Assembly: GCA_964035545.1 (NCBI GenBank)
Contig: OZ037767.1
Span: forward strand, 6,774,707 to 6,838,706
Length of the DNA stretch: 64,000 nucleotides
Source of the DNA: Bugula neritina
Taxonomy: Eukaryota > Animalia > Bryozoa
Reading direction: 5' to 3'
Position 1 is the stretch's first letter; each line of letters starts with the position of its first letter. The translations under genes were made by a program, and so were the position numbers. Below are positions 1-61,766 of this stretch, one piece after another. Under the pieces are notes generated by a model. The model did no database searches. It was not told where the DNA came from and saw only the letters and a program-made list of their open reading frames with translations.

Positions 1-48
1 CAAACAGGAGGAGACAAATGCATTATTATGCTACGTAATCCCATTACA
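1..48 (-). repeat. Partial 3' LTR of element 1
   Basis: Exact match to 3890-3937; begins TGTAATGG on the minus strand directly after a purine-rich tract. Confidence 0.9.
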
Positions 49-68
49 CCGCCCCCTCCAGCAGAAAG
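49..68 (-). other. Polypurine tract of element 1
   Basis: Minus strand CTTTCTGCTGGAGGGGGCGG abuts the LTR; nearly identical to 54891-54910 in element 2. Confidence 0.75.
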
Positions 69-325
69 CCATACTTTCTGATAAAAACAGAAATAGTATA
101 ATAATGCAAAAATAAAATAAGTAAAGAAAACTCACAAAGAGAAAGAAGAGAAATACCAAATGTATGACATATATAAACATATAAGTAAGATACGGATAGC
201 CAGCGTACAACTGGCCAGCTATGAAGAGAGAGTCCTGGATCGTAGGTCATTAGCAGTCAAGCATTTACACGATCACAACGTAGTATCCCGGGAACATGCG
301 GGATGGAATTGCCAACTGTCAGCTC

Positions 326-1354
326 CTACTTTCGTAGGGATTCAATCCGGTGTCGTGCCTGCCGTGCACGTAGCCTACGCTTTAGGCGTCCTACTGAGCC
401 CTTCAATTCGCTAAGGCCCATTGTGGTACTGAGTAGGTCGGGAGCCAACTGGGTGAGTTCATCCTGTAACCGTGAGAGTCTTTCTTTGACGGTTGCTAGT
501 CGGGTAGGCCTGGTTGGGGTTGGCGTCGCTTCTTCTGGCGAGTCTGATGCTTCCATAGGGGTATTGTCTAGCCGCGGTATGATTGCAGCGACCGTTTTCA
601 CCATAGGGGACTTCTGACGGGCGGCTGTTAGTAATGTATAAAATCCGGAGGATAGTGCGGCCCAGGTTAAAGCCTTCTTAACCATTGGTTTGACCGCTTC
701 TAGGTATTGGTCATAGTTGTCCGCATCTACTACATAGCCCTCGCCTGCGAAACAGTCCATCATGTGAGCCAGGACGGGGTATGGGTACACGTCGTGATAT
801 CCACACGGACAAAACCGTAGTAGGAAGTGTGCATTCACATGCAGCCGTAGTCCTTGGTGTGAGGGAAGCTCTTCGTAACACACGTGGCAGGTGTGTTGTG
901 ACCTACTCGGTCCCCAGGCTTCTTCAATTTGCCGCTCCGTTCGTCGTGACACCCATCTGTGTCTTCGACGCAGCACCGCGGGCAGTCCGTTGTCCATTTC
1001 CGGTCCATTATCCGAGGAGGAGAGAGAGTGTAGGTCCTGTGACCCAGAGTTGGTCGATCGAGTGTGATCTGCAAGAGTATAACAGTGTGAGAGGGTACAC
1101 TGAGTACAACCAGCGTATACAGCCTGGTGGGTACTTAACTCAATTAGACACTCGTGAGACTCAGTTAATGAATAGTTGATCGAAAACACACACTGCTGTA
1201 ACAGACTGTTGAGTCTTAGAGTCAATGTGAATTCTCACCACTAAAAATCATTACCGAGTCTCCAGCTTACTTTATTATAGTTAAGCTGATTAATACAGTT
1301 TAGTTCTCGTACCAAAAACATAACTAACTCACCCCTCGATTCTTGGCAAGCCAT
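326..1354 (-). CDS. Retrotransposon accessory ORF3: zinc-finger/coiled-coil protein; predicted exons 1354-1333 and 1068-326, 254 aa
   Basis: CHVC-x12-HVNAH C2H2 finger, second CPC...H...C cluster and C-terminal heptad coiled coil; clearly homologous to the ORF at 55183-56037. ATG micro-exon MACQESR, G|GTGAGT donor and TTGCAG|AT acceptor join in frame. Confidence 0.75.
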
Positions 1355-1383
1355 TGTGAATGAGAGTGGTATGTTTATGAATT

Positions 1384-3468
1384 CTACGTACGTCTACTCA
1401 AAGCTGTATTAATGTGGTGAAAGAGCGAGCAGCGTGGTTGTGAAACGTGACTATGACTTATTACCTCCGGCGTATGAATCTTATTTGAATTTCCGCCGAG
1501 GCAAAAGTTGATATTTTCGTGGTGCTCACAACTCCCACGCTCTGCTCCCTTCCCCTCACGGCGTCTCGTAGGACGTTTGACCGCGCCCTTAACGGAACGT
1601 GGTAAGTCCTTGCGATACGCGGGGCCTGGTTTAGGACACCGTTTCCAAGGTGTCGTCACTAACCAAGGCGGTTTACGCACCCGTGGACGGTCACGTCGCT
1701 TGGGTGGTGCCTCCAGCCAGTTTGTGACAAATGGAGCTTTCCTAGCATCTCCGTTCGGAGCCTGGGGAAGTGTTGTCTCCAGCCATGGTGGTTTACGCAC
1801 CCGTGGACGGTCACGTCTCACAGGTGGTGCTTCCAGCCAATTTGTGCCAAATGGAGCTTTCCCAGTACCTCCGCACGGAGCCCCTCCCTTGGGGGGTTTT
1901 TGCACTTCCAGGTCGGTTCCTGACCTAGGAAGTGGCGGTGGCGGCTTGCACGCTAACGGCGGTGAGCGCACTTCCTTGGACGGGTGTGGCTTTTCCTGCC
2001 TCGCCACTGCTTTGGGTTGCATACTAGGCGGTTTGTCGACCAGGTTAGCAGTCTCCGTCTGCCCGGGTCTTTCTGCACTTTGCCTTCGCCGCCCTACCTC
2101 GTCAGTAGGGGGGCCGTGCTTACTGACCCGGCAGACTCCGCACTGCCCAACGCTGTGTCGTACATCACGCTCCATGTGAGGCCAATACCACCAGAGTTGT
2201 AGTTCGGTGAACACCTGTTGGGCTCCCCCATGAGCCTGTTGGTATACCTCTTCTATCAACTCTTGGCGGATGGCGGCAGGACAGAGGGTCCTCTCCTGGT
2301 CTGGCTGGTGATGGTTATCGGCCAAAGATATGGTCAGTAGACCATCCGGCCCGATCCGCAGTGCGTTCCAACGTCGGCAGTACAGCTGCCACTCAGGGCA
2401 GCCCTGCTTCCGTTGTCTGTCACTGGGTCGTCGCCTTTCCTGTTTCATTCGATAGACGTCGGCTACCACCCCCGGAATAATTTCCTGGAGGTGTCCTAGC
2501 TCCTTGACGCCATCGGTTGAGACAGGTTCGGCGTGGGGGTCCTGTGCCACTGCTGGGGGCATGTCAGGATCCCCAAGGTGAGGTGTAGCCTCGGTTTTGT
2601 GTAGTGACGTGGCCGTCTCTGGGCGCTGTTCGTCACCCACGCAACCGTCTGATGTTCCCCCACGGGTCTCCTGGCTGTGGGGTGAGGCAGTCCTTTGCCC
2701 GGAGGGCGGCTTCTCTAGAGGACTTTTCATCGCGGTTTCCCGCGATGGCCTGCTGTCATCTTCTTGAACAGAAGGAGTACAGCTTGGTGGAGAGGTGGGT
2801 GGTAGGCTCACTGGTTCTGAGGGGGAGTGGAGGCATGGCACCGAGGTCTTTCCTTTCCGTGTCAGCTGGTTAGAGCTGCGGACAGGTGGGACTTCCGGGT
2901 GCGCGCTCTCTACAGCTCCCGGCTTGGAGGTACGGCCATCGTCTACCTTGCGGTGGACGGTGCCCCGGGAGTGGCCAGGCATAGTACAGGTACGTACTAT
3001 CGGCTCTTCTCCCGTTGGGGGACGGCTGTGGACCCGCCGCGGAGGGGAAGACGGCGCCCCGTACGGCGTCTTTGTCCTCTCCCTCACAGTGTCTGAGGTC
3101 GGCAGCTCATCGAGTCCGTCTCGGAGTGGCTCCCGGTGGTGCGGCTTGGGTCTAATCCCCCTTCGAGGCTTCTTCGTCGGCCCGCAGGGTGCGGGGGCCG
3201 TAGAGGGCTCCGTGTCTATGGCGGAGATGCCAAAACGGACCCGCAGGGAAGCGAAGATACCGGCCACGTCAGTTCCCTCGCCGCATGGCTTGGCCTTGTC
3301 CGCCAACGCTGTCCTAAGCTTGAGCAACGCCATTCTTGGTGGCCACCGTGCAAAGTTCCGCAGATCTTGAAAAGTTTGAATGAATTGTTCTACTGATTCT
3401 TTACCTGTAAAGGTGGGTATCTTCAGCCGATATATAGTCTCCTCGAATCCTATAACAACTCTCACCAT
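1384..3468 (-). CDS. Fused Gag-Pol remnant ORF (694 aa): Gag N-terminus, Pol linkers, integrase zinc-binding region, Pol tail
   Basis: Segments YRLKIPTFTG...FGISAID (Gag), VRTCTMPGHSRGTVH (post-protease), PGVVADVYR...WYWPHMERDV...CGVC (integrase N-terminal domain) and GSCEHHENINFC (tail) match element 2. No DSG, YLDD, TDAS or DDE motifs. Confidence 0.75.
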   Translation of the reverse strand: MVRVVIGFEETIYRLKIPTFTGKESVEQFIQTFQDLRNFARWPPRMALLKLRTALADKAKPCGEGTDVAGIFASLRVRFGISAIDTEPSTAPAPCGPTKKPRRGIRPKPHHREPLRDGLDELPTSDTVRERTKTPYGAPSSPPRRVHSRPPTGEEPIVRTCTMPGHSRGTVHRKVDDGRTSKPGAVESAHPEVPPVRSSNQLTRKGKTSVPCLHSPSEPVSLPPTSPPSCTPSVQEDDSRPSRETAMKSPLEKPPSGQRTASPHSQETRGGTSDGCVGDEQRPETATSLHKTEATPHLGDPDMPPAVAQDPHAEPVSTDGVKELGHLQEIIPGVVADVYRMKQERRRPSDRQRKQGCPEWQLYCRRWNALRIGPDGLLTISLADNHHQPDQERTLCPAAIRQELIEEVYQQAHGGAQQVFTELQLWWYWPHMERDVRHSVGQCGVCRVSKHGPPTDEVGRRRQSAERPGQTETANLVDKPPSMQPKAVARQEKPHPSKEVRSPPLACKPPPPLPRSGTDLEVQKPPKGGAPCGGTGKAPFGTNWLEAPPVRRDRPRVRKPPWLETTLPQAPNGDARKAPFVTNWLEAPPKRRDRPRVRKPPWLVTTPWKRCPKPGPAYRKDLPRSVKGAVKRPTRRREGKGAERGSCEHHENINFCLGGNSNKIHTPEVISHSHVSQPRCSLFHHINTALSRRT
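1667..1862. repeat. Direct repeat with 120-bp period inside the element 1 ORF
   Basis: GGTTTACGCACCCGTGGACGGTCACGTC...CAAATGGAGCTTTCC occurs twice, encoding KAPFxTNWLEAPPxRRDRPRVRKPPWL twice. Confidence 0.85.
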
Positions 3469-3574
3469 ATCCCAACTTGGCGGGGTCTACAGGTGTAACA
3501 ATGTCATCTTCCTCCTCTTCACTTAGTGGCATGAGTAGTTCCGTAGCTCTTTCTTTCATCTTGAAATACGCGAA

Positions 3575-3592
3575 ATCCCACTGCTGCCACCA
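3575..3592 (-). promoter_or_regulatory. Primer binding site, tRNA-Leu type
   Basis: Minus strand TGGTGGCAGCAGTGGGAT, 1 nt from the LTR; one mismatch to the element 2 PBS; complementary to the ...AUCCCACCGCUGCCACCA 3' end of metazoan tRNA-Leu(AAG). Confidence 0.85.
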
Positions 3593-3593
3593 C

Positions 3594-3937
3594 TGTTGTG
3601 AGTTTTAGCACAATTATCAAGCGTGGATTGCCTGCGTATTTAGTTTCAATTTAACTAGCAACTACTAACAGAGCTTGCGTACGATAACCTTTATTTAATT
3701 CGATAAACATAATTATAACAGTATGTCAAAACCACAATACATCAATCAATTATAAACACGTCTAGCTACTACGAGCCCCTGCTCTCAACACACATGGTTT
3801 CTGCTAGCTAACCCGCGAACAGTCACTTGACCGGAACCTTGTCTTCCGGTCCTTCTGATTGGATAGTAAAACATAGTTATAAGTATTCCCAAACAGGAGG
3901 AGACAAATGCATTATTATGCTACGTAATCCCATTACA
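3594..3937 (-). repeat. 5' LTR of element 1 (344 bp)
   Basis: TG...CA termini, adjacent PBS, minus-strand AATAAA near 3690; its last 48 bp equal bases 1-48. Confidence 0.88.
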
Positions 3938-4612
3938 CCGGTCATGATTATGATAAATTTATTACATTTACTGTCTGAATTTTTATAGGGTAAATATTAA
4001 ATTTTGTTTATGATGATATAAGAGATTAAATAATTATAATGATACTGCTAGTAATAATAACAATCTGAGTGGTTCAATATGAATAATATTTTAGTACTAT
4101 TAATTATCATAAAATTAAACTATCATAATAATGATTATCCTTAATGTTAACATTTGGATGATCTTATTTAAATTATATAGATTTGTTATTACTATTAGTA
4201 TTTGTCATTAAATAAGTCGTGTGGCCTATTTTAGGTATAATTTCTGCTTAATGCCTAGTTAAGTCATAAACGCACTTGTTTTTTGTGACTAAACTAAAAA
4301 TTAAGAGTTAAGGGAAATTGTTTCGACTCACTCTGAATTTGTACACATCATGATCATCAATATTAGTATAACAGTAACTGTAGTCATTGCAGCTGTAATA
4401 CAACATTTTAGTGTTAAATTTCATAGCCATTATCATGTTTATATTGATTTTCATCTCTCTGCAATTGATATGTCTATTTTAGGGGAAAATGCTAATCACC
4501 TAATACATGAAAATGAAAGAGAAACTTGTTCCATTTCAGCAGCAGAATTATTTTTAGAAACAGAATAAGTGAAGTTTTCTTTTTGGTGACTACAGACAAA
4601 CATCGCTCAAAC

Positions 4613-7600: not shown

Positions 7601-10600
7601 AAGAAGACATCAGCTAACCCACTAGGTATACTGGACTCCTCAACTCTGCTATGGACTCAGGGTAAAGCACCAAAGTCAGCTGGTGCTGATGTTGAAGTTA
7701 TGTCATCATATTTATCATCCAATGCAGCTCAAAAGATAGCAGCCATCAACAGGTGATTGCAAGTATTCATAAATACTAACTATTTTCATATAATATGCAG
7801 GTTAATTTTGTCAAAGTTTTTTTTTTAACCTGCTTCAGTATAGCTGACCAAATTTGCACAGTTATTTCATCATCTGTTCAGTATTAAGGATTTATCTCGG
7901 AAGTTATGAGTGTTATTATATTTATTTATTTTAGTTTATTTAGTAATATTATTTATTTATATTATTACATATACACACATGTAATGTTTATATATATATT
8001 GTATATCATCTGTATATTTGTATTCCTAGTATGTATATTACGCCTTGCTAGTAGTTCTGCCAGATTGTAACAGATACTGAACTCCCTGTAGACATCTAAT
8101 AACAGTGACCAATGAGTATTTACTGTGTTATATAGTGAGCTGAGAGAGGACTCTGGTAATACCGAGCTCTGGCTAAGACTCATCAGTGCCCAAGATGGCC
8201 TCCTGCAGCAGCGTACGGAAGATGGCAACTCCAAACTGTTCACTCACCAGAATATTATTGACAAGAAATTAGCCATCATTGAGCAAGCAATTAAGAAGAA
8301 CCCAGGCAACCTACACCTCAAGGTTTATATTAAATAACCAGTAAACTCAGTGTGAATGTTCAAGTAGTTTTCAGAGATTCACCTGTTTTTGCAGTGAAGT
8401 CCGTTCAGCTTCAATATAATGTCAAATAGAGCCTCTGCTATGCTTACAGTTATATATATGAAAGTTTACTTTATCTACTTGCACTTTCCTTGTATAACAG
8501 TGTGAATGATCAGTATTTTCAGAACAAGTCGTAGATTCAGCTTCATAATGTGATATCATAGCCTACAGGCTATACACATACTATTCATATACACTTACTA
8601 TACATAATTATACACTTACTATTCATATACACATACTATGCATTTACACTTACTATACATATACACTTACTATACATATACACTTACTATACATATACAC
8701 TTATTATACATTTACACTTACACCATACATTTGCACTTACTATACATATACACTTACACCATACATATACACTTACTATACATATACACTTACTATACAT
8801 ATACATTTACTATGCATATACACTTACACCATACATTTACATTTACACTGACTATTGTACTCTTACTATACATTTGCCTTACATGTAGGTCATTTTACTT
8901 TATTTACTAGTAAATTGGGACCACAAATGAAAATACTACTTAAAATTTATTGTTTTTGATTAAATTGATTTTTTTTGATGAATTACAAACCGATATATTA
9001 GTAGCTATAGTTATTACAAAATAGACGAAAAATGAGGATATTCAGTGTATACTAAATAAAATAAGGTGACTCATACATCACACACTCATCTACGTTATTC
9101 AAGTGCTGATTGCTTTAGCTCAAGAAGTTAGAGTTATCAGGGAAGATTCTAGACTGGCAGGAGCTGAGTCAAGAATGGAAGAACTTGACATTCACTCATA
9201 TTAATGACATTGATGTGTGGAGAGGCTACTTGAATCATGTTAAGAACTCATTTGCCAAGTAAGTTGTCGTAGAATATATATTATATATATATTTGTTTAG
9301 TGGTTGCTATAGTTACATATAGTATGATTTCCTTCGGGTTACAAATTGTACAGTTTAATGCTGTGATTTATAGCAGAACAGTCTTATTAAATGCACACAT
9401 AGATTGATAAACTTGAAATGCATGAGAGTCATGGCAGTTGTACTAAACCAATCACACTGTTTGCATATTGCACAAATGAGTTTGATTTAAGCTACCAAGT
9501 ATTTACCAAGCAATAAATTTCATAGAGGCAATAACTCTCATTCTTTTTCACTTGATTTGTCATTAAGGAGCTCTGTGGTGCTCCTTCATATGTTCCTCTC
9601 ATTGTTATATACTCTGTAACCAACTCAAGTCTGCCGTTAATGTCTTCAGCTTCACTGTGGGAGTGATGCAGGCAGCTTACACCAAGTGTATCAAGTCACT
9701 TCGTCAAGTCAGTCAAGGCATGCTCAAGTCTCATCCCTGTCAGCCCAACACAGTAGAACATATGATAGGTCTGTAAGTTTATATTATAGCATCTTCTTAT
9801 ATGTTTATACACATAATTTGGTCCAATTATTACAAAAGGCTTTGACTTGCAAACATCCACATTCAAACAACTCAATAACTTTGCTGCGTATAAATGTGTG
9901 TTGTTTGACAGTCCACGATGGCTCTGATTTCAATAAGCTTTTAGTGATACAAACTTTCTCTGAATACTCAATGAAAATTGTAAATTTTGAACTTCTATTT
10001 TGTGTTGTTTTTAGTGATACGTATCAGACATATGCTCACGGTTTTTTGTATAAATTCTAAGTATTAATTGTAATATTTTTGTTTCTACTTTTTTGTTTTA
10101 TTTTTCTTTTTGTTTTAGAAATTTTGTTGGAGTTATGTGACCTGTTAAACTTGGCCAACTGCACAGAAAAGGCTGTCGCTATTGTCCAATCAATGATAGA
10201 GTTCAATCTGTATCGCCCAGCATCATTGGACAGTCATAAAGCAGCCATCGAATCATTTCAGGAGTTCTATGATTCTGGTGAGAGCCAAGACTCTACATAA
10301 CTACATGTCTGATATTTGTCTGTTGATGAGTTGAATTTAAATCATACCTTTGTGGTATATTTGACTAATCTATTTTGATGGACAAATTCGTTAAACTAGT
10401 TTGACAAAAAATTTATGAAATCCTTATCAAATATTGAATTATATTTTAACAGAAGGGTTGAAGTCACTTCAACATTAATAGTATAAATTATAAACCCGAA
10501 AGCCAACTTGAAATTAAATAAAATATTAAAATTGGAATTTTCTGTTAGAATGAACCTGATCACATGATTACTATTCAAAGCCTGTCACTATGTGCTATAT

Positions 10601-13600: not shown

Positions 13601-16600
13601 ATTGCTATCTACATATGTAACTCATGTACTTTCTTCTAGGATGTATATTCTATTGACTTGCAGTAAACACATTGAGAATTATTGTAATTGTAAATCATTC
13701 TAATGACAGGCATTCAAACATATATATCTAAATTAGCCTCTATCTCAGACATTCATCTGTTTACTAGTTGGCTGGTTTGTGGAGGTGCCCTGATCACCAG
13801 TCCATCCGCATCTCTCAAGCTTCTTCTCATCCGTCAATTAGAGTCACAGATACAAGAACTGTGGGAAAAGGTTGGTACAGCTAATACTCATTATTTAATG
13901 GTAGCTTTTGTAATAGTTTCACCAACTAGTTGTTAAAATAAATCAAATATTTTTTAAATTACTTAGCCATGTGAAATTTATTTGAAGTTATCTTCTCCCA
14001 AAATAATAATTTAATGTGGGACCACCTAGCACTTGGTTTCAAATGATGTTTTTTTGCAAAAATGGATGAATGAGTTCTAAAGAGTGGGATTTTCTTAAAG
14101 CTGACTGGTTTTGAGTGTAAGACTGGATTATTCAGAACGAAATACTCGAAGTAGGATGCACAAAGTAACTTAACATAAACCTTCTCAGATTTAAGTTGAT
14201 CCTTACATTAGTAGGTCTTTAGTGCACTGGAGTGCTCCCAGATAATTAGTTCACTAAATTGTATACTTATATTGTATTGTTTATTTTAAAGATTTCACAT
14301 CATCATGCCTGTCATCTGAAATGTAATTCTATAATAACACCATCGTATTATGTTATGTACGCTTTTAACAGAAGCTTCAATACAAGTGTTTTGGATGTGG
14401 GGATCATTTAACTAAACTAAAATATAATTCTACATGTACACACTGTAAGAAATGTTATCGGTTTGGTATATTTAGCATACCGACGCCACATTGACTCAAT
14501 TTCATTGAATTTACAATTCAAGAGTAGACGACTACTTGTTTTACATGCCGCCTGCAGCCATCGATTGTAATGTACATATATTTATAGATTCAGGAAACCA
14601 AGTACTCAGAGCAAAAACAGTTGTTGATGTCGGTGTTTTCCACGTTGCTATTATGCAACTATACGTCAGTGGCGTTGGTCAGCGGGGAGGCAGCACTAGA
14701 GCAGTCAGTCTCTTATTGGTCACAGCACGAGTTTCTCACACAGAACTTTGACCAATCAAAGTACTACAAGTCATTAGTTAAGGTCAGTGGGACAACTTGA
14801 TGTAGTGGAGTAGTATGTATAGTGTAGTGTAGTGTAGTGTAGTGTAGTGTAGTGTAGTGTAGTGTAGTGTAGTGTAGTGTAGTGTAGTGTAGTGTAGTGT
14901 AGTATAGTGTAGTTTAGTGTAGTGTAGTATAGTGTAATATAGTATAGTGTAGTGTAGTGTAGTGTAGTGTAGTGTAGTGTAGTGTAGTGTAGTGTAGTGT
15001 AGTGTAGTGTAGTGTAGTGTAGTGTAGTGTAGTGTAGTGTAGTGTAGTGTAGTGTAGTATAGTATAGTTTAGTGTAGTGTAGTATAGTGTAATATAGTAT
15101 AGTGTAGTGTAGTATAGTATAGTGTAACATAGTGTAGTGTAGTGTAGTATAGTGTAGTGTAGTGTAGTGTAGTGTAGTATAGTATAGTATAGTGTAGTGT
15201 AGTGTAGTATAGTGTAACATAGTGTAGTGTAGTGTAGTATAGTGTAGTGTAGTGTAGTGTAGTGTAGTGTAGTGTAGTGTAGTGTAGTGTAATATAGTAT
15301 AGTATAGTGTAGTGCAGTGTAATATAGTATAGTATAATATAATATAGTATAGTGCAGTATAGTATAGTGTAATATAGTGTAGTGTAATATAGTACAGTAT
15401 AGTGTAATATAGTATAGTGTAGTGTAGTTTAGTGTAGTGTAGTGTAACATAGTGTAGTGTGACTTCACCTAGAGCAGCATAGAGTAAGTGGTGCAACTTC
15501 AAAGAATACTGTACTGTTTTCATTGCACATGCCTAAACCTCATAACTTCTTATTAATCACAGTAAATATTCATCTAAACATGATAATATCTTGGGGTAGC
15601 ATTTATAAACCTTTCTATTATTTATTTAAATTTGGTTGCTATATGAACCAATTGTTTCTGGGTATATTTAAAACTATCAGAATATTACAAAGAAACAATT
15701 ATCATCTAATGTTTCCATCTCCCTTCCTTCTTCAAAATGGTAAAATTTGCATCAACAAGTATTACATGATATATTCAGGAAAAGGTGTGATTGTTAATTT
15801 AGCCTTCTTCAAAAAGGGTGGTTTAGTACCTTCTTGCAAGCGACTTGAGATGTGGCCAATTCAACTCCTCACACCCAATAGTATTGCGTCAAACCCTGGA
15901 GATGCAAATGCAGTACTTGCTAATGGCTGAGGGTGCTGGGCCCAAGTGGCAGCAGGTTCCCCAGTGACTCATAAGGGCAGGTGCTATGGCAGTCACTGAC
16001 ACTTGGGAAGCGGCATAGTAGGGGCCTCCAAATGTATCAAATCGGAATTCTGACCTTGTATTAATTTGAATAAATATCTTCATTGCCACTAATGGGGAAA
16101 CCATTTACTGATTTATTTGTTAAATCTAAACCAATCAACACAGTTCTAGGTTGGTGATGACTCTAAAGATACAGGGATGTAATGCAAGCATTTTATTTTC
16201 ACACAACTTACTAAATGCCTACACATGTGCATGTACTAACTTACTTATCCTTCTGTAATATAAGGGAATGTTTAAATAGACATTGACATTAACATAGTCA
16301 ACTTTTTGCTTGAGTAAATGTAAACTTGACTTGGTTCAACATTGACTTGCCTTTGCTGATATTTTACCTAGCTCCATTATTTACTTTAGCATTCTAGTGT
16401 GTACTAAGTACTTTAAATCTTCACACTTAAATAAGGTCAGCTTTTATGTTTATTATAGAAATTCAATTTATAATTTAAAGAGGTCTATTGATAGCAGTTT
16501 AATATTGACCAAGAGATGCTAATTTCAGCTGAACTAATTTCCTTGCTAAAGTAATTAATCCTGATTTGTATTCTTCTGTATTATTTCTATAAGATCCTAG

Positions 16601-24213: not shown

Positions 24214-27200
24214 ATGAAGGAAGAAGCTGCTGGCCAATCAGAAGGCTCGGCAGCAACCAGGCTGTCAGCTGAGGCTGCAGAGTTTGTTCCTAGTCATGAC
24301 TGTAATAGTCTTCCAAAGTATATGTTCAACTGTTACCCATTTGTAACAGAGTCGGTGGGGCAACAGAGCAAGAGTAATGGAGGCACACCTAGTCACCATC
24401 AACAGTGAGGATTTATTAGATGATAATTAGTATTCTTTGCGCCATCGCTAGTCATCTGTTCGAGCTTATTGGCTGCCAACGCCCATCAATGAACTCATTT
24501 ATACCTTCTCTTTTTTGCGATTGGCCAGTTTTGGTGGCTTGGATGATGCATATTTATGGATTCTAAGATAATAGTTGTAGAATGGTAGTAATTTTATGCA
24601 TATTTTTTAACCATGTAATATGGGCTAAGTTTCCTTCGAAAGGACCAGTTAAATTCCTTCAACTGCTTAGTGCATATTTTCCTATTTGTCTAATTACTAT
24701 TTCTCTTCTCCTTTCCATCAGAGCGTGTTACTAGCATTTACAATACTGAAGGGGAAAATTCGAACCTTTAATCCATGCGTTAATCCAGATAAATCCTCGT
24801 TTAAAGTATCAAATGTTTCCATGGTTACTAGTACGTTGTGATTTGTTGCCAACTTGAGCAGGTAGTACATTAAGTGGTCCCATTCAGTGCTGGCACTAAA
24901 TCCTTATCCAGGAATACTTGCAATAGTTACAGAACTAATGCTATGTTATGTTACAGTTGGTTGGCACAGGAACTGCCCCTTCTTTCAAGAAAAAGATATG
25001 CATTGCCTTACTCGTAAAGTACATCTTCTGTTTCAGACACTCCAGCGAGGGGCTCCCCCATAAGTCGCTGCCACCTAACCACCATCATTGCTCTTCTGGC
25101 AGCAAACATCATGGCCACCAGCCAATTTTCCAAGCACCCCCTCCAAACTTTTACCCGTCACACTCTGCTACTCCAGGTAAGCCCTTAGCAGCTTCCTCGG
25201 CCTCCTTCTGGCCCTTCCCTGTGGCCAGTGCACTGTGTGGCATCTCTTTATTAGGTTTCACAAGTAACTCTGAGCCTGCTAAGTATTTCAGTGATTCCAA
25301 GTCCTCGTCTGCTAGCTGGTGACATTTATACACTGCTATGCCGAGCCCCTGTCTTGTATTACCATGTTAAATTATATGCCATGTTATTTGTTATAATAGG
25401 TATATGCCATGCTGTATGTTATATCACATGCTGTGCTGTATGTTGTAATATATGTCATGCTGTATGTTGTAATATATATCCTGCTATATGTTATATCACA
25501 TGCTGTGCTGTGTGTTGTAATATATGCTGTGCTGTATGTTGTAATATATGCCATGCTTCGTGTAATATTTTGTATCTATAGATTGGTACAATTGTCTTGC
25601 TATATTTATTGTCCTTAGACTGAGATAGTCTACAAATATCTGCTACTTATGAGCCGATAGTGTTGAGGTTTCACTGCTCCAATACATTATATATTTACTG
25701 TGTATTAGTAGTGTATACTACTATACAACTGCTGCATTACCTTAAGAGTACTTGTGCACATGTGCTACTAGCTCCTACACTAGCAACTGTCTAACTACTC
25801 AGTGTACACTGCTCCAGCACTTTTTAGCAGGGTAGCCTATGTACACACAAGTACAGCTATCCGTAATATAGCTTCATAGATAATCTGGTTACTAGGTATC
25901 TGGTTGTATAATGCAAACAGTCTTTATTCCAATAACTATTCAGTCCAATAACTATTCAGTTACTGAGCTGAATTGGGCATTAAATACTAAATGATTTATA
26001 ACAGGCAGTTTAAAGATAGTAACTTTTTCATCTCTAATAATCATTTTAAAATATGGTGCTTCTTTATCTCCAGCTAATGTATCTAACTCCCAGACAAGGT
26101 GTTTCCGTAATTTCTGCACTTTTAAATTTTAAATTATGGCCTTTCACTCTTTGAGACTGAAATATGTGTGTTTCCAAAGTGCAGTGTGCCTATATGTATG
26201 GTGCCAACAGTTGTGTATTTCTGAAAGCTGTGAAACTATTAATTTGCATCTCAGGTGCAACCATTTACTTTCTTGTATCAAAACAAGAAATCTTCACCTG
26301 GTTTCATCCTACCAGCTCTTTGTAATAATTAGTAGCTACTTTCAACTCTGTTGAAATATTGTCACTGTAATTTATTTTTAATTGCTATGAGGGTATAATT
26401 ACTGTGTTTATTATGTTAAGATGTGCCTGCATATACTTGCACTACGTACATGCAGGCTGTATGCAGCACAGGTGGTTTCCATCTCCTACTGTATACCTGG
26501 GTGTTGTCAGCTTGAAAATAGTTCAATTAGTGCCAATCCTCGCTGCCTTATATCTCCGCAAAGTTTTCGTTTTCTATATAGTATATACACCCTGCTTTAA
26601 AGTTTAAATGTTGACATCTAGTGTATGTGGTTATGTAGTATTCTAGTTAATGCACCTTTGTAATATATCATTTCATGACATGAAACTGGAAATACCTTTG
26701 GTAGAGTTGGCATATTTAAGAGGCTAAAATTAGTGACTGTTTTAGCATTTTGGTATTTTCTGTAGTTTATGTTTCAGTAAAGCAAACTAGAATAAATTAG
26801 TACATATAAGCATTCAGGATCAACTAAAGTTATCTCCCCTGGTTTAGTCCTATATCTTACTCAGAGTAGTCTGGCAAATCATAATAATAAAATGTTTTAA
26901 TAGAAATTAGAGTCATTTTGATATAGTTGGAGATATTCAGTGTTGATTGAAATTCCACCATTCTACCAATTAGAAATTCTTGTAGTGGTATGCAATATTT
27001 TTAATGAGAATTAAATATATTCATAGTGATGTGATCAACTCAACTCTGTTCCAGTCATGACTTTACTGAGACCTGATTGAAAGGTTTTGTGTTAGCTTGA
27101 CTTAACCTGATTAGCCCTTGCCCTTGAATTGCTGTGAATTTTATTTTCGGTTACACTTTGCCATGCTATTGTCTAAATTTATTTCCAAATTACTAAACTA

Positions 27201-33200: not shown

Positions 33201-36200
33201 TAGTCCCAAGGTAAGTCTTTACACCTGAAGTTGTCCCCTCACTACAATACGAAACCACTTTATCCAGTAAATATGTAACTGTGAATGTATTCTTCAGTTA
33301 GAAATGGAAGGAATCTGCCAGCCTTTTTAAACCTAGCAAAAGTGGTGCAGAGAAAGTCCTTTTGTTTCTAGTATCTAGTGTTGAAGTAAACTTTATAAGT
33401 GTTTTTGATTGTTGGTAGTCAAGAGAGATTTTGTAAAAAGTGAATGCCTTGCTTTCCTGCTCTTCCTGTAATGCTATAACTTATTCCACGTTATTAGTAT
33501 ATTCTGTACTGTAACTAGAATCCATGCTGTAAAATGTAGGAAACATTCACCAGTGTTTACATGTGTTGTGATTGGTAGCTAGTGTAGCCTTTGTGCTCTG
33601 GTTATTGATTGTTTCAGTGTAGGTCAGTCGCATTCTCTATATACTTGTACATGAACTGCCACACTGTATTATATCGCTGACAGGCAGTTTTATATTACTC
33701 ATACAATATTTATACTATTAATATAACTGTAGTTTTATATTACAGCTTATAGTGTGTGTACTTTATATGGCATACACTCATTGTAGTTTAGTTATTTATT
33801 ACTACTCTGAACAAAATGGCTGTATATTATACGAGATGGTTCTCTTACCTATTAAGTATGGCATCTATCAACACTTGCAATGTTACATTCATACAAGGTT
33901 CCATTAAAGGAAGGCTTGTCATGTTTCCTGCCCTTTAGGACAGGCATTTCTATATACTTTTAACCAGTGATTTCTGAGGGCCTGCAGCCAGTCTAATCAA
34001 ATTTAGACTGAGATCCTAGAGTAGTTATATTACTCTAAAGGGTCCCGACATAGCTGAGTCTGTAGGCCGCAGACACTCAATTTCAACTTGTATTCAGTAA
34101 AAAAATATTGTTCTGTTTGTATTTTATAGCATAATGGAAGCAATGTTATAATATGCAGCCAATATGAGAAGACAACTCCTGTAGATAGAAATACTCATGG
34201 AATGTATTCATTTGTAGCCTCTGCAGTCGGATACTGAAACGCCCACGCCGGTGCAGAAAAAGAATAGCTTTAGTCCCAAGAGTACTGCAGCTCTCAATCC
34301 ACTGGACTCCTCCGCACCCAACCAAAAGCGGGGCAAGGAAAGGGAGACCCCTAAGGCTAAGAAACCCAGTGCCCTCAAGAAAGTCATTCTCAAAGAGAGA
34401 GAAGAGCGGAAACGGATGAGGTAGACGTTTTTGAAACTGTAACTTTATAAAGTAACATAGAGATGTGTTTATAGAGCAAAATTCTGCATGTAATTTTAGT
34501 CAATAAAGTTGCTTTGTTAAAAAGAGCTGGTGATATCCTAGCAACCATTAGCTCTGAACTCAAAGGATCCGCCATCAGTGTAATACTAAAGTGTCTTGCT
34601 TGCTGCCGCTTGTTTGCTGACTTAGTGTGTGTCTTAGTAATTCCTCTGGCCAATTAGATGTTGGGTTTGTGTTCAGGTACATTGGAGACGGGCCAGTTGA
34701 TCTGATCTCTACACCTGACTCCAGTCTCCACTTCACTTCTGAACCGGAAGAGAACGACGAAGATGATGTAATCAGTGACATAGAAGAAGCCAATTTGCTA
34801 GGCAATAGCTCTATAGGTTGGTAAAACTAGCACCTCGTTTCCATTTCTTGGAATGGATCAGTTTTGATGCATTTGTGGTTTCGGTTCCCATTAACTTATG
34901 GTTACGGTTTCACTCATTCAACTGTTCCCAAACATCAAATGAAAAATCCATGCAAGCAATGGAAACACAGTGATGGTATATAAACTTTCTGTTGGTATTG
35001 TTGTCTCTGTATTTATACTGTTTCAAACTGATGAACTGGTATGACATATTGAAAGCCTGGTGGAATTTTAGCTCAATATTTTTATAGTACAAGACATAAA
35101 AAGTTAAGCATTGCTAGACATCAGTTAGGTTCACGGTGCCAGGTCAAGTGAGAGTAAGTGATTGCAGCAGATGTGTGAATGTGATGGCATATTGTGTGGA
35201 GTGTCGGTTACAAATCTGCAGCTTCTGTTACATTGTGTCAAAGGTTCTTAGAAATAATTAGTCTACAGTGACGTATTCAGCACTATATAGTAATTATATA
35301 TAACACCATGTTGCTCTGCTTACCTGTAGTACACTCTGCCATATGTATTTTCATCATATCAAAGTAGTGTTGAAGTGATTGGAGACTTGCAGGTTTTAAA
35401 AATCCCCAAAAAATGACAAATATGGTTTTATGTTTGAATGTTTATTGTGGTTGTTGATAGATAACGTGTCTTCGTATTACAGGAGATGACTCAGGAACAC
35501 CCCATAGTCAAGATTTATCCCCTGTTAGTCAAAACTCTCCGATAAGTGTCGGATTGTTGTCTCCCCCGACCAGCCTGAGTAATCCAGCCAGTGGTATCGG
35601 CAGCCCTACTGTTGTCAGCGACATCATACAGAAGATCCATTCCCGTAGATTTAGAGAGTAGGTGTTGGGCACGCTCTATAGATAATGTATAAACCTTCCC
35701 ATTCTATTTGTAGATAAGGTATAAGTTTTTCCATTCTATTTGTAGATAATGTATAAACCTTCCCATTCTATTTTTGATAATGTATAGACCTTCCCATTCT
35801 ATTTTTAGATAATGTATAAACCTTCCCATTCTATTTATAGACAATGTATAGACCTTCCCATTCTATTTATAGATATTGTAAGCAAGTCCTGGACAAGGAG
35901 ATTGATGCCAACTGTACCAACCTTCTGCAAACTCTCGTCAAGTTCCAAGACCGGCTCTACCACAAGGACCCTATAAAAGCAAAGACAAAAAGAAGGCTTG
36001 TACTGGGTTTAAGGGAGGTCACCAAACACCTCAAACTTAGAAGGGTTAAACTGGTCATTATATCTCCTAATCTCGAGAAAATACAGTCTAAAGGTAAGAA
36101 ACTTTATCTTTCTAAATTAATTTTGCCCTGTGAACAGTCGATGAGTTATATTATATGTTTCATGAGATATGGAAGGGTACATAGATCCTTCTGCTGTATT

Positions 36201-39200
36201 ATGGATTACCAGCTGCTGTATTTAAAATAATTTAAATGTGTTTTCATTTCTATCCTAAATGGCGCAAAATATCTGCTTCCAAGACTTATTTCATTGGTTG
36301 TGAGTTAGTCAACTAGCCACCAGGTTTTAGAATGTTGGAATTTTATTTGCTACTTAATTAAAACCATTTGACTTTATTAGCTACTGTTGAAGTTTTTTAA
36401 TTTAGTAGTTTGGAAGTTTCACTTCTTCAAATTTTAAAAGACACTTCACAGTTATCAGTTAATAGTAGTGTAAGTTGATCGTATTATGTGAAATTTATAT
36501 ACAATGTGGGATTTAAATGACTGGCAGTGTTAATTTATAGCCTTCAGATTATCTATATTTTGGTAATTTCATACAGCATTAGCTTAAATGATGGTTTTAA
36601 CCCGAGGAGACATTTATCCCTTGACTTCAAAAGTTTAAAGTTTCAGTTTCAATTCTGCATTCTATTAACTTCTTCTCATTTCTTCTCACTATTTTATTCT
36701 TTGCTGGAGTTGTCTTTCTTATGTGATGCTCATGTTTCTCACTTTGTAAGTTGTAATGCTAGGCGGTCTCCTTGCAGTAGTATTACACAATGTGGCTTTA
36801 TATAGGCAAGGTTTCACAATCTCTACATATAGAACACATAAATTCCTTTTTAATGTTAATTACCCTTTTCTCTTTTACAGCATGCTAATGATACCCCTGC
36901 ATTATTGTATAAACTCTTTCTCAATCCAGTATTCTATTCTTAGGTGGCCTTGATGATGCGCTGAACATAATTATAAACCTGTGCAGCGAACAGGATGTGC
37001 CGTTTGTGTTTGCGCTGGGGAGGCGGTCTCTTGGCAGAGCGTGTGCCAAGCTTGTGCCAGTCAGTGTTGTTGGAGTGTTCAATTATCAAGGAGCAGAGGT
37101 GAGACTGGGATCCTAGCACTAGTTTGTATGCTGAGCTATGCATCCTATCAGAATGTGCATTTGCTGTGTACAGAGGCTAAATCTGATGTTTATGCCACCA
37201 GCTTATGGCAATAAGTAATAATAACGTATGTAATAATTTTTTAATGCTTAGTCTGTTTTACCTTGACTTCAAATCCAATCCACTAAGCAGTCGATTAGCT
37301 TGTTTTAATTCTTATATATGTTTATATCATGATAAGTATAGTATGAAGCTAGAGGTTGGTGACTTTCAATAGTTTATCACTTGTCTTTTTTTACAAACTG
37401 AATAAAACAAACTCAATATTTTGTAAAAAAAATGGCTGCTCCAGATGTTTGAAAAATGTACTTTGCATAAAATTCATTTTTAAAGCTGTAGACCAACTAC
37501 CGCAAGCTTTAAGTGCACGAATAGTATGGAGTTGTCTTCCTTACTTTGAAATCTCATAACTTGTTCATTTTTAATAATTTTCAATGCATACACAAATTAT
37601 AATATGGAGTTGTCTTTCATTGATTATAGACTATGTACAAAGAACTAATAGAGCTTACCAGTCAGGCTAGGGAGGCGTACCATGAGATGGTGGATGCCCT
37701 GGCTAAAGAGTTGGCAGAGTACGGAGGAGCTCTGAAAGGTTCCTGTGGTCTGTATTTCTCACACCTTGGTCACTCCCGCACCCCCTCTGGCTGCAGCGCC
37801 ATCTCATTTACTAGCAGTATCCTCTCAGAACCTGTTTCTGATGTTCAGAGTGTCAAGGCAGAGCATATTACATCCTACAGTAAAACTGCTACGACAACCA
37901 GTATTCAGTCAGAACAGGTGGGTTCTCAAACTTTGTGCTTTATGTTGGTGCAGTATTCAATGGACTCCGTAAACTGTCAAAGCATTAGAGAAACTAGGTT
38001 CTTGTTCTAATAACCTCTCCTTGTCTTTGGTTTACTGAACAGTTTTGTCTCTAATGCTAAAACAATTATCTGTTTATTGTATCTGATTATTTTATACAGG
38101 TATATTTTTATGGTGTAATAGTAACATCGTGTATTGGGTGTATATTTGTTAGGCCAGTAGTCAAGGTTCCATGCCCACATCAGGCAGTAGTTCGATAAAT
38201 GAGACACGCGGCCCTCTCCAGGATGATATTTACGACATAGATGAGGGAAATGAAGCCGATACTGAAGATAATGACACTGTCAACCACAACCATGCAACTC
38301 AAACTGCTCAAGATGAAGCAAATGCTCAAGGAAATGACATCTCAGCTCTTAACGTAGCTAGTCAGTTTATTACTTCATAATATTATGCATTCATTAAGAT
38401 AAATAAACAAGAAGCATTTCTTTGGTTGCTACTTTATTTATTTAAATAAATTAGGGACCAACCAATATTTTTCGTTTGCTTTTAATAAACTTACTAGTAA
38501 TAGTAATAGGTAAAGATGTATTTAAGTTATGCATTCAATGTGTATTTGTCTTTTATAATAATATTATGAAAGTGAAATTACTTTTTGTTTTATTACTTAC
38601 GTTTTAATTTTTATTTTAGATAATACAGAAACAAGTGCCAAGTCTTATATTAATAACGATAAAAATGGAGAGGCTGTTTCTTTTCAGGTAACTATAATGA
38701 CTACAGTTATAGTTATCTCATCATCTCTAACTGAAATAATTGTCTTTGCAATAATGTACGTCTATGTTGTCAAGATTGGTAGGTAATATCATATTGCCAT
38801 GCATAACAAAGTTTTTTTTCTTTGCACTTTATTGTTTAAACGTTTGAGTCGGTGATAAAATTTAAAAATGTAATCGGATTTTGCTGTAACTGTGGCCTGG
38901 TGTACTACAAGTAGCTGATGCCTTATTTTGTAGGAGGAGTCTACCAAATCTATAGACACAGTTAGTCAGTCGTTAGCACAAATGTCTCTTAAAAAGCGAT
39001 CACATGATAGCCATCGACGAACAAACAGTGGCAGCCATTTTGAAATTAGATCACAGGCATCTTCACGCACCCTAGATCACCATGACACCGTTAGGTAAAG
39101 CTCATCATTACTTTACCTCCACATAGGAAATTAAGTTAATTAACTAGGCAACGTTATAAATTGCAGAATATAGCATTTTGTGTAGCTTCTTTGACCAACA

Positions 39201-49599: not shown

Positions 49600-52299
49600 C
49601 TAACGGCCCTGAGATTTATATATTTTCATTATGTGGGCAGTCTCTGATAGAGCCATATTAATGCACATAGAATTGTTCAAGCCAAAATCAGTTAGTAGAT
49701 AACCTTGCGAGTTACCATATGGACGGAATCGAAAATCTTTTATTTTATAAGCAGGTAAAGACTCTTTAATGCATAATTTTTCCCAAGAAGTTCGTAGCTT
49801 CTTTAATCTTAAGACCTCACCAGCAAGGTAATCTTTTTTCCTAGCAATAATGGCTTCCAGTTTATTTTTGAAGTAACAATATAATGAAACGTCAGCGCTT
49901 AGAAACTTGTAGACAGTAGCTCTATTTTTTTCGTTGTCTTCAGGTAAAAGAGTTTCATTTTTCGTAGAAGATGTCATGTCGCGTTGACGATTTGACTGAA
50001 AGTAAAGAATATCTAAATCTTTCCACCCTAACATATCTCTTAGCAATATCAGGCATTCATCAAAATATTCAACAATAATTACGAAATGGAATTGTTTTTC
50101 AAGGCTATTAATTAGCTCCTCTATGACTTCGTGATTATTGCTGTTTGCTAAGCTAAGACCTAAATCATATGCTTGAGGATTTTTAAAAATAGTATTGCAA
50201 ATACGATGTCCAGCATTGATCAATTCTAAGAGAGAATGATTCCGATTATCTTGGCTATGCTTGCAGTTTTGCAGATGATAATATCGATACACTGAAGCAA
50301 GCTGTTTAAATGGATCCCTTAGAGAAGTCAGGTAAAAGCTGTCTGCCGGCATAGTCTTTACCAGATCATCAGAAAAAACAGTATGCAAACAAAACACATC
50401 TGGGACTTTTTTGCCTAAATGAGGATACAAATTTTGCCGGAATTTGTTGGGCCAACCAAAATTGACCAAATTCTTTCCAGGAGGAAAAGCAAATGACAAG
50501 TTTCTCTTAACTCCTGCTCTCATAATGATGTTCTGTATAGTGCAACTAGCAGTCTTATGCACTTTTAGATAGACGATGTGGTTACTATTGAAAGCTCTAT
50601 GATTGAAATACGTTGAGGCTTTATGTTTTATGAATTCCCCATCTGCTATTTGTGATAATGCTTTAAGGTGACATTTTTCCTCTACATTAAAATAGTGAAG
50701 TTTTAAATCTGCTGCAGAGTTATAACCTAAAAGTATAAAAAATATTTCTACCTACTTTTATTATAATAGGACTAGGACTACCATTGTAACTGTCATGAGC
50801 AAGGCAAACATACAATAAAAACTAAAGCTTAGGATTTGGTGTCGAATTAATAAAATGTATTATCCAGCTTGCAAAAAAGATGAAAAGGTTTCTGGAAATT
50901 GGTAATTTGCACTAAAAATATTTGGCTGCAAGTGGTATTTTCAAAGTAAAATTACTTGGTGTTAGACAATTTTAGTTTTATTTTAATGAACCAGAATCAT
51001 AATTTATTATTGAAACAATGATTAGACAAAAATATAAGCTCCTTACCAACAAACAAGTAGACAAGAACTGAACTCAGAGCCAAAATCAGCAATGCTAGAA
51101 CTTTTGCTTGTTGTCTGCTCAGAATGTTTAATCTGAAAAAAAATTATGGCAACAGAAGTGGTTAAAACTCAAGCAAGTTGAACGCTGAAATCTCTAACTG
51201 TTTTAAACTATATAAGTTCAGCCAACATCTGCAATAATTTATAGCTAAAGGTGTCAACAAGCTAAGATTTCAAAAACGTCTATCTTTTTTTAATTTCAAT
51301 ACAGCTCTCAACTACAAGCTAATGAATCTTACTATGAAACACAACTTTATATATTAATGGCAGAGCTTTTCGAATTAAAATTTCTTAAAACAATATGTTA
51401 TTATAGGCTATATAAATTAATTTGACCAAGACTAAGGTGGCAGTGGTAGAACTGGAGTATTTATAGAACTGCTGATAAGCTGGAAGACAAGAAAACTTAT
51501 GAGTTATGACAAAATTATATTCTGCACTACACCCAATAGCAAAAGCAGAAAGGCTGGCTGCATGTATGTTAGAAGGAAAGAAGACAGCAGAGGAAAGATT
51601 TCAATTGAAAAATGTGAATAATTAAACTTGTCAGATAACATCAAGAAAAGACCGTAGAAGAGAACACAACATTCAAAAGATTTCTTGAAGGCAAAACCAC
51701 GTAGCAGTTAGCAGTAAACATTGATAAAGTAATTGAAAAAACTAATGAAGGAAAAGAAAAGGCTCTACATGATCAGTACACCAGGAGCTAGTATGAATGG
51801 TTGAAAAGGCAAACAGAAATACTGTTGTTGGCTGCTTAAGATTAGGCACTTCCTACTAGGAATAAACAAGGCAGAAAGAAGTGTTGGACATGAAATGAAA
51901 GGCATGAAACTGTGATGCATAGCCTACACCCAGTAAATGTGAGAAGCAAACACCGAGCAAATTTTAGTAGAGAAATGAATATTTGGCTTTTTTAATTCAC
52001 TGAGAAGTGTCTGAAATCCATAGATTTCAGAAGAGCACGAATTGGTTCAACCACAGAGTAGAATTAGTAACCGAGAATGAAAACATAATTTTTTGGTTAT
52101 TTCAAAATGTACACTAACAGAGTCATCAAAGCTAGAAGAAAGGCCTAATATCATTGTAATTGACAAGCACACTGCAAAAAATAATGATCAATAATATAGC
52201 GGTCTTTGGCGAAAATAATAGAGTCAGAGAAGATAGGAAAATACCAAAAGATGACATTACAACTCACCCATCTTTGGGGAAATTCTTAGTAATCTCCAT
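49600..52299 (-). CDS. GAL3ST: Galactose-3-O-sulfotransferase family protein; exons 52299-52268, 51132-51047, 50726-49600; 414 aa
   Basis: Type II transmembrane anchor VLALLILALSSVLVYLFV; 5'-PSB motif IVYLKVHKTASCTIQNI; 3'-PB motif LTSLRDP...SVYRYY; NPQAYDLG; FVIIVEYFDECLILL. Exon phases are compatible. Confidence 0.9.
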
Positions 52300-53810: not shown

Positions 53811-54035
53811 TCTCTATATTCATATTCACTTATTGCAAGCTAGTTTCTAAGTTAGAGTTAAGAGATCTGAATTCAAGCATTCTCATAATGAAATTATGTT
53901 AATGATCCAGTAAAATGTAAAAGAAATTAAGCAAAAAACCCATAAAGTCAAAATAGCATATTTAATTTTATGTTTAATAATAATCAGAAGTAACAAGTCA
54001 GAGTTATAACAGCATGGCTTTGTCCGCTGCTACTT

Positions 54036-54581
54036 TATCTTGATCTTGATTGGGTTAATTAAGTCACAAGACCTCTCGGAGAGAGTAATTATGGGACCCT
54101 CGGATCTATCCAGGCTCAGAAATCCGCTACTATCTCCCCCGTACGGAGCTCCCGGACAGTGCGCAACAGGAAACCCTGCAGGTACAAGCTCGAATCGCAG
54201 GCTATAGCATTGTAGGTGTTAATACGGGTATTAATGTTATGGGTTGAGGATTTCATAGATTTAAGTGTGTTATTTATGGTTGGAAATAAATCATCATTAG
54301 CAGTAATACGACACAACAATCATCATGACTGTCTGCGCTTTCTTAATGTTTCTAGGCCTAGGCCGATACTTCTCTACCTTTTAAATTTTTAATGAACCGT
54401 ACAACCCTATTTTGAGTAACTTCTAATTTTGTTATTAGATGTTTATTGCATGGGTCCCATACTTCAGCAGCATATTCCAGGAGAAGTCTAAAAGAGTTTT
54501 ATATGCAAGAATTTTAACATTTTCTGGGGCATTTCCTAGTGTGAGCCAGAATAAACCTAATACTCTGTATGCCTTTGATAT
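54036..54581 (-). mobile_element. 3' part of a decayed LINE (ORF2 C-terminus, 3' UTR and tail), split by element 2
   Basis: Continues KHVENLI|SKAYRVLG...LAYKTL, then (frameshifted) LEYAAEVWDP and ...GFLLRTVREL; stop at 54116; short (ATCAAG)n tail. Confidence 0.8.
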
Positions 54582-54890
54582 TGTTATGATTTTCAGAATT
54601 AGGGTTGATATGCAATCCAGAGAGTCTAATTACTTGCTATAGAACTGCACCAGGATAAGTCGAGTGAACGAGTATATATTTTAAACACACAGATACATTA
54701 CAAAAACGATACAAACACATTTGACAATTCACACATCTAGACTATTCAACACTCTAACTTCGACTGACTGACAGCGGGAAAACTATGATTGCTGCTAACT
54801 AACTCGAAGCCGCTAATTGGCTATCAATTGTTCCGGGTCAATTACGCGACCCTATATACTGTGCTGCTGGTAGCTCCACGAGCCACCACA
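54582..54890 (-). repeat. 3' LTR of element 2
   Basis: TG...CA termini; matches 61786-62094. Confidence 0.96.
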
Positions 54891-54910
54891 CCGCCCCCAC
54901 CAGCAGAAAG
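54891..54910 (-). other. Polypurine tract of element 2
   Basis: Minus strand CTTTCTGCTGGTGGGGGCGG abuts the 3' LTR. Confidence 0.75.
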
Positions 54911-56255: not shown

Positions 56256-56279
56256 ACTGAATTTGTGAAATGGTTTGAA

Positions 56280-61754: not shown

Positions 61755-61766
61755 CTTGGATGCACT

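Follow-up and report, generated by a model that had tools for sequence, protein, structure and literature searches.

The stretch of DNA analyzed here, 64,000 nucleotides from the bryozoan Bugula neritina (contig OZ037767.1, positions 6,774,707 to 6,838,706 of assembly GCA_964035545.1; hereafter the window), begins with a retroelement, E1, whose minus strand carries an unbroken frame of 694 codons made of fused gag and pol remnants (P0001). On balance, we favor the view that E1 is a member of a multi-copy family of internally deleted Ty3/gypsy-type elements bounded by long terminal repeats (LTRs), in which the frame is open by descent and which depend on functions supplied in trans. The deletions would have arisen in frame in ancestral elements and then been passed on, and E1 would owe its open frame mainly to source copies that were active not long ago; purifying pressure in their lineages, if any, was probably weak at most, with the integrase zinc finger and the N-terminal block of Gag as its candidate targets. 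E1 retains its LTRs, a stretch resembling a primer-binding site, a polypurine tract, the 5' portion of gag, remnants of pol in several places and, downstream, a conserved frame, ORF3. Since it is devoid of protease, reverse transcriptase (RT), RNase H and integrase core, E1 would need these enzymes from autonomous relatives.

P0001 (1384-3468, minus strand, 694 amino acids from an ATG) lacks internal stops, as a prior sequence-only reading of the window had claimed, against 27, 31, 20, 12 and 27 stops in the five remaining reading frames there. In 2000 mononucleotide shuffles of 1384-3468 the mean was 23.2 stops and the minimum 10. These shuffles and the counts in the other frames show that base composition does not explain the absence of stops. 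For comparison, the window also holds E2, a full-length Ty3/gypsy-type element (54582-62094, minus strand; delineated by LTR search, Pfam and open reading frames). When the Gag, Pol and ORF3 proteins of E2 were compared with E1 by tblastn, every significant gag or pol block fell in the P0001 frame, bearing out the claim that the retained blocks are read in their ancestral frame. From its 5' side, the frame comprises, all on the minus strand, a Gag N-terminal block (3462-3214; E2 Gag 35-117; 65% identity in tblastn, 70% over 73 residues in blastp); a weakly matching pre-protease block (3207-3019; E2 Pol 26-114; tblastn E=1.8e-5), which corresponds to the nucleotides around the gag stop of E2 read in the pol frame; the protease-to-RT linker (3024-2560; E2 Pol 268-422; 35% identity); and the RNase H-to-integrase linker with the zinc-binding (HHCC) domain of integrase (2560-2026; E2 Pol about 900-1079, with 54% identity to E2 Pol 900-1075). 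These are followed by the integrase C-terminal tail, which runs to the Pol stop of the clade (1384-2025) and includes a 40-codon duplication and a DNA-conserved block at 1420-1538; tblastn additionally places a match to E2 Pol 1331-1459 at 2130-1786 in the P0001 frame, and its match on the integrase side of the 2560 junction extends over E2 Pol 839-1079 at 2757-2026. The zinc-binding domain is the sole Pfam domain in P0001 (PF17921, E=1.4e-9, residues 397-451, window 2116-2280).

Relative to E2, four segments are gone from E1: the C-terminal part of Gag with its zinc knuckle, the protease, RT with RNase H, and the integrase core with the SH3 domain. The corresponding junctions, located by tblastn and Pfam near 3207-3214, 3019-3024, 2560 and 2026, agree with the four losses that had been placed near 3210, 3030, 2560 and 2040; a fifth small junction is possible inside Gag, at a 'TEPSTAPAP' piece. 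P0001 gave no Pfam match to RVT_1, RNase H, rve or protease, and tblastn detected none of these blocks in E1, whichever frame was read; E1 thus has neither the RT nor the integrase catalytic core of an autonomous element. The 120-bp duplication that had also been proposed is present and in frame (1650-1762 versus 1770-1882, 84% identical, spacing 120), and both it and the stop position are common to P0001 and its sisters P0008 and P0088. The same stop position further recurs in P0122, P0129 and P0157, and P0120, an autonomous-type integrase C-terminus, has this tail too and stops three codons further on. Measured against the pol of E2, the P0001 frame seems to overrun the stop, but in E2 the pol frame stops at 56500 and the conserved integrase tail of the clade lies there in another frame (56564-56283), open down to 56283; E2 hence changes frame before the ancestral Pol end despite its identical LTRs. 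The frame had been said to run to the ancestral Pol stop, and at this end the statement is nearly correct. Within the tail, 1420-1538 and E2 56325-56443, both on the minus strand, form the best-conserved DNA block between the two elements (80.7% over 119 nucleotides). The 78-codon tail shows a proportion of synonymous differences (pS) of 0.39 between E1 and E2, as against 0.55-0.77 elsewhere, with a ratio of the non-synonymous to the synonymous proportion (pN/pS) of 0.84; there are hints of a nucleotide-level constraint on it.

The membership of both elements in the Ty3/gypsy type is apparent from their direct LTRs with TG...CA ends and the adjoining primer-binding-site-like and polypurine stretches. 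In E1, on the minus strand, the 5' LTR lies at 3594-3940 (about 344-347 bp), with the primer-binding-site-like stretch beside it at 3575-3593, near-identical in E2 (88% for 3575-3608 versus E2 61767-61800). At the other end, the polypurine-tract region (52-95; 87.5% for 46-93 versus E2 54888-54934) adjoins the start of the 3' LTR (1-51), which is 100% identical to 3890-3940 and the remainder of which lies beyond the window edge. As the LTR pair can be compared over only 51 bases in the window, the age of this copy is poorly constrained. E2, in turn, has the protease-RT-RNase H-integrase order by Pfam, and E1, reduced to the integrase zinc-binding domain and linkers, is collinear with it. DNA identity between the two is 67-81% across the main blocks of homology and, in a global alignment, only about 60% for the LTRs, values that rule out E2 as the parent of E1; their synonymous sites are saturated (pS 0.55-0.77). 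Nevertheless, given the similarity of the primer-binding-site-like stretch, the polypurine tract and the LTR ends, an E2-like element serving as the helper of E1 is conceivable.

The history of the deletions can be traced through relatives of P0001. A word-index search recovered four of these from environmental contigs, and their clusters supplied more; all are without RT and integrase core. In an alignment of these proteins (A1), the integrase-core junction falls at the same residue in P0001, P0002/P0008, P0003 and P0004, and the junction left by RT and RNase H is common to P0002/P0008, P0003, P0004 and P0005, with P0001 having an extra in-frame loss of 47 residues there. The protease is still present in P0003/P0009 (722 amino acids). 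A HMMER scan of 1.84 billion representative proteins yielded 448 matches at E <= 0.001. Among the 157 proteins examined, a single high-scoring segment pair bridges the junctions at 3210, 3020, 2560 and 2026 in 8, 4, 17 and 19 proteins respectively, some of the low-identity rows being doubtful; the clear sharers are P0090 and P0091 for the first of these junctions and P0090, P0091 and P0133 for the second. The RT/RNase H and integrase-core junctions recur across numerous diverged proteins of environmental origin and are thus apparently ancient and handed down. The simplest history thus involves two old deletions, of RT/RNase H and of the integrase core, followed by two younger ones, in Gag and of the protease, each of them inherited. 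The argument that four independent junctions would all be in frame with a chance of about (1/3)^4 consequently fails, since the junctions are inherited and common to relatives, and since E2, against which they were counted, is a distant relative and not the parent. For the junctions at 2560 and 2026 an origin by splicing is ruled out, as the deleted segments at the equivalent positions of E2 do not begin with GT and end with AG. Separately, the environmental protein P0109 represents another deletion derivative, in which the Gag N-terminal block is joined directly to the N-terminal block of integrase. The protein search at lengths of 1216-3470 amino acids returned no autonomous partner of E1, the long proteins in the representative search being only 27-32% identical. 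For the DNA of the relatives, a scan of metagenome contigs with a second alignment (A2) gave 201 pattern matches and a scan of viral contigs 46, none of them confirmed.

That E1 belongs to a multi-copy family is evident from assembled contigs of four sequencing runs of one organism (X1-X4; three samples, one study), in which 833, 3416, 1411 and 1264 contigs match E1 at at least 85% likeness. The lone copy that the sequence-only reading had named as evidence against its proposal was therefore not what we found. Contigs lying on the P0001 frame at at least 90% likeness number 271, 1543 and 540 in X1-X3. Several span the junctions themselves: 2026 is crossed at 1736-2137 in X2 and at 1725-2241 in X3, and 2560 and 3020 are crossed in X3 at 2504-2885 and 2987-3091; the 3210 junction is crossed only by one contig of 86% likeness (X2, 3113-3307). 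Loose contig ends at 2546, read by eye against P0008, match the longer form of the element that P0008 represents, and the P0008 subfamily is therefore present in the same organism. A joint from 1762 to 1891, which skips 128 letters and has 10 other letters between, occurs in a single contig of X2 and a single one of X3, flanked on its sides by only 21-25 letters, which is too weak for use. A marine plankton metagenome (X5) contributed only three short contigs at 90-95% likeness; a match to E1 from this run, at 1491-1539, lies within the DNA block conserved with E2.

Examination of this particular copy points to a frame that is likely a family heirloom rather than a working gene. First, the start of the frame is disrupted. 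The Gag start codon of the family lies at 3559-3557 (minus strand), and in E1 it is in another frame than P0001, opening 52 codons that end at a stop at 3403-3401; at this end the proposed continuity of the ancestral frame breaks down. The N-termini of P0091, P0111 and P0118 match the E1 frame opened at 3559-3557, and P0091 and P0111, which begin 30 residues upstream of the P0001 start, cross in tblastn from frame 1 of E1 into the P0001 frame (frame 2) at about 3483-3443. A one-base length difference from the sisters maps to 3476-3479 (minus strand), where the base is missing in 98% (X3) and 100% (X4) of the contig depth. The extra base is thus private to E1, and it puts the long frame out of register with the start codon of the family. 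At 3468 the ATG encodes an internal methionine, which is not conserved as such in P0111 or P0118; with the start-codon contexts and upstream ATGs of E1 in view, efficient translation of the 694-codon frame would seem unlikely. Second, the first zinc-ligand histidine of the integrase finger is a tyrosine in E1 (codon 409, window 2242-2244), with place 2244 specifying histidine in all other contigs (1, 20 and 13 in X1-X3). Third, at 13 of the 32 columns conserved in distant autonomous integrases, the residue of P0001 is not that of most of the family. From the lost ligand, these departures and the start-codon break, E1 appears to be a decaying copy or one defective on arrival, and the 694 codons are likely to be an inheritance.

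Several observations, nevertheless, sit uneasily with a frame that is open by descent and little else. The alignment of P0001 with P0008 covers 466 codons and has 66.5% identity; it is free of stops, and its three indels are all in frame. A neutral simulation that took E1 DNA to the same identity produced about 8.4 stops, and none of its 1500 runs was stop-free. Other core-deleted relatives, likewise, have open frames of 572-722 amino acids. All four zinc ligands are kept in 13 of the 16 core-deleted proteins, and within this core-deleted set conservation is higher at the columns that distant autonomous integrases also conserve (0.80 versus 0.69; Mann-Whitney p=0.02, Spearman rho 0.27). Among the sister contigs at at least 90% likeness no indel row falls inside the P0001 frame, and 11 of the 12 best-supported indels of the whole of E1 (there being 22 more rows besides these) lie in the LTR or untranslated parts.

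These observations would find an explanation if continuity of the frame had itself been selected in the active source lineages, regardless of the amino-acid sequence, with E1 as a recently damaged product; we regard this as possible, if rather unlikely. Reading the frame through, from the start of Gag to the stop of Pol, might protect the RNA from the decay that is set off when a stop comes early and the 3' part is long, or might tether the nascent Gag N-terminus to its own RNA for inclusion in helper particles. Such selection on openness alone would account for the fact that the blocks of P0001 and P0008 are near-uniform in identity (63%, 72%, 73%, 47%, 69% and 62%, the 47% block being short) across a stretch in which some eight stops are expected, for the stop position common to six proteins and for the clean record of indels. 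It would also be compatible with the variants among the sister contigs. The 49 in-frame variants listed, the best-supported of 117 and 514 rows, comprise 14 synonymous and 35 non-synonymous changes and no stop, against neutral expectations of 30%, 67% and 3%, and are spread flatly over the codon positions (15/18/16); the synonymous split is neutral, yet 1.6 stops would have been expected, a weak difference.

On the other side, the stop-free run is partly a matter of ascertainment, as long proteins are found only from open frames and P0001 and its window came to attention because the frame is open. Moreover, 7 of the 12 close sister proteins (P0089, P0090, P0099, P0111, P0133, P0135 and P0146) change frame relative to E1, and E1 itself is severed from its start codon. 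Of the many frameshifts and stops in sister copies that the sequence-only reading had named as evidence against its own proposal, the frame changes are thus found in part, and stops in none of the 49 variants listed. Recombination with autonomous partners, by analogy with retroviral template switching, could furthermore refresh the retained blocks in the absence of any selection on the fused frame.

Still less probable, in our estimation, is that the fusion protein is itself functional, with its Gag N-terminus, linker, integrase zinc-binding domain and tail joining the Gag or integrase assemblies of a helper, whether as a dominant-negative factor or as a parasite that has its RNA packaged by them. 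The pattern of retention has some features that such a protein would produce: pN/pS between E1 and E2 is lowest in the Gag N-terminal (0.31) and integrase N-terminal (0.45) blocks and reaches 0.69-0.76 in the linkers and tail (0.43 in ORF3); the Gag block is the best-kept one among the sisters (P0091 79%, P0111 88%); the HHCC ligands and the integrase-constrained columns are preserved as described above; and P0109, a separate derivative, joins the same two blocks. However, the comparison of E1 with E2 includes the autonomous lineage, and so cannot settle what selection acted after the deletions. Between sisters the integrase N-terminal block is only slightly better kept than the rest (108 of 149 versus 202 of 317 identical residues), the sister variants are neutral in their synonymous and non-synonymous split, and E1 is without one zinc ligand and its start codon. 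The retention of blocks could equally reflect cis-acting RNA signals, and proteins that span a junction are in frame by construction; as regards one such signal, a second polypurine tract within the integrase N-terminal block, no copy resembling the tract occurs among purine runs of at least 11 there.

The earlier suggestion of selection, or of a Gag-integrase fusion maintained for its activity, therefore retains the 466 open codons and the 13 ligand sets on its side, and has the neutral variants, the near-uniform identity of the blocks, ascertainment and the seven frame-changing sisters against it. Taken together, weak constraint on the integrase finger, on the Gag N-terminal block and on frame continuity in active lineages is a tenable if somewhat doubtful proposition. 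The bolder one, that a long-lived gypsy-type lineage of a marine animal, without RT and integrase core, has kept an uninterrupted frame of Gag N-terminus and zinc finger, running from the Gag start as far as the Pol stop, because translation, or the fusion protein, gets its RNA into helper particles, strikes us as unlikely; were it true, it would constitute a coding strategy for a non-autonomous LTR element, alongside the conserved accessory ORF3. Descent from recently active source copies, with the deletions inherited in frame, remains our preferred account.

ORF3 (326-1225 in E1, minus strand; 299 amino acids as listed, with the conserved part at 329-1069) is 50% identical to its E2 counterpart and looks better conserved than the fused gag-pol frame. 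We found 75 relatives at 49-86% identity, typically of about 245 amino acids, none of which is named or has a Pfam domain, and among the 15 ORF3 variants listed 8 are synonymous and 7 non-synonymous. The aligned protein displays a C2H2-like finger (C-x2-C-x12-H-x3-H), next to a further cluster of Cys and His residues and, in an AlphaFold2 model of moderate confidence (mean predicted local distance difference test score, pLDDT, 65.7), a C-terminal helix of 57 residues. Pfam gave only sub-threshold zf-C2H2_6 and ATG16 hits, and a Foldseek search of the model against the PDB had no match at E <= 0.001, returning only weak C2H2-finger rows. ORF3 is probably the part of E1 most likely to matter as a protein. 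In one of the 75 relatives, P0014, the first 13 residues of Gag are joined to ORF3, with the match to E1 beginning at 1069. An acceptor-like 'ttatactcttgcag' stands directly before the conserved ORF3 start (window 1069-1082, minus strand) and a donor-like GTGAAG follows 3523 in E1, behind Gag codon 12 (window 3517-3523); by our own reckoning a join of 3523 to 1068 would keep ORF3 in frame. This arrangement suggests a spliced ORF3 mRNA, as in the part of the literature on the CERV frame of Cer1 used here (PMC10309623). It also suggests that proteins like P0014 could stem from retro-copied short derivatives.

The window otherwise consists largely of host DNA, with a GC content of about 0.28-0.39 interrupted by two GC-rich stretches (0.47-0.57) at 1-4000 and 54000-62000. 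E2 has 309-bp LTRs at 54582-54890 and 61786-62094 that are 100% identical and have TG..CA ends, and it is bordered by a 4-bp flank repeat, ATAT. On the minus strand it encodes gag (60801-61754), pol in the -1 frame (56500-60912; protease, RT, RNase H, integrase zinc finger, integrase core and SH3 by Pfam) and ORF3 (55183-56037). A further RT fragment (RVT_1, E=6e-6) occurs at 62713-63704 on the minus strand, just outside the 5' LTR of E2, and E2 may have inserted into or beside an older retroelement. Host coding pieces include a galactose-3-O-sulfotransferase-like frame (49600-50562, minus strand; Pfam E=9e-46) and an L7Ae/L30e-family fragment (35844-36230, plus strand; E=2e-9), the former marking the host as an animal. 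About 132 copies of the 5-base unit TGTAG (86% matches) fill 14801-15460 and account for a GC-skew spike at 14001-16000; more tandem arrays in the AT-rich host DNA lie at 8571-8846, 25373-25557 and 35677-35880, with periods of 17, 72 and 32 bases.

Non-autonomous LTR elements are usually regarded as non-coding hitchhikers. If the frame in this family was kept open through much divergence, this would be a novelty: a parasite that itself lives on a parasite would be spreading with the help of translation or of a truncated Gag/integrase protein. The safe value of E1 is descriptive, as a worked example of stepwise, inherited, in-frame deletions, and the unnamed conserved ORF3 family with its 75 relatives may be the more rewarding target.

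Finally, in terms of known systems, E1 is a non-autonomous LTR retrotransposon with coding remnants, a kind that is already described (PMC13570524, PMC9744471) and that forms a continuum in the portions of the first of these sources drawn on here, which mention the BARE-2/BARE-1 pair alongside TR-GAG elements, partly degraded derivatives and the LARD size class (PMC13570524). Like the TR-GAG, degraded-derivative and LARD families of these portions, E1 is LTR-bounded, lacks RT, combines gag-side with some pol-side remnants in a family-wide structure, and is presumably mobilized via an autonomous partner with which it shares sequence (PMC13570524). Unlike those plant families, it resides in an animal and has relatives in marine samples, has lost all of Gag but the N-terminal third, capsid core and zinc knuckle included, carries this piece in a single frame with three remnants of pol, the integrase zinc finger among them, and adds ORF3 (PMC13570524). 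It is accordingly not a TR-GAG in the sense of the definition given there, which asks for a complete Gag frame, as E1 has only Gag 35-117 and lacks both the CCHC knuckle and the middle part of Gag (PMC13570524); nor is it a LARD, a class without internal coding capacity, in view of its 694-codon frame and conserved ORF3. The CERV frame of the Caenorhabditis elegans element Cer1, as the cited part of its description has it, is of no known homology, is expressed from a spliced mRNA and is needed for export of the genomic RNA (PMC10309623). ORF3, with its roughly 250 residues, C2H2-like finger and long helix, is likened to it by description and not by sequence or fold, and we infer its splicing only from the acceptor-like site and the one fused protein (PMC10309623). 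The sub-populations of wheat RLC_Angela, as far as the consulted part of that account goes, resemble the E1 family in being non-autonomous beside autonomous relatives, with many copies defective on arrival; E1 differs from them in that it still has a frame of 694 codons, with relatives of 521-722 amino acids (PMC9744471).

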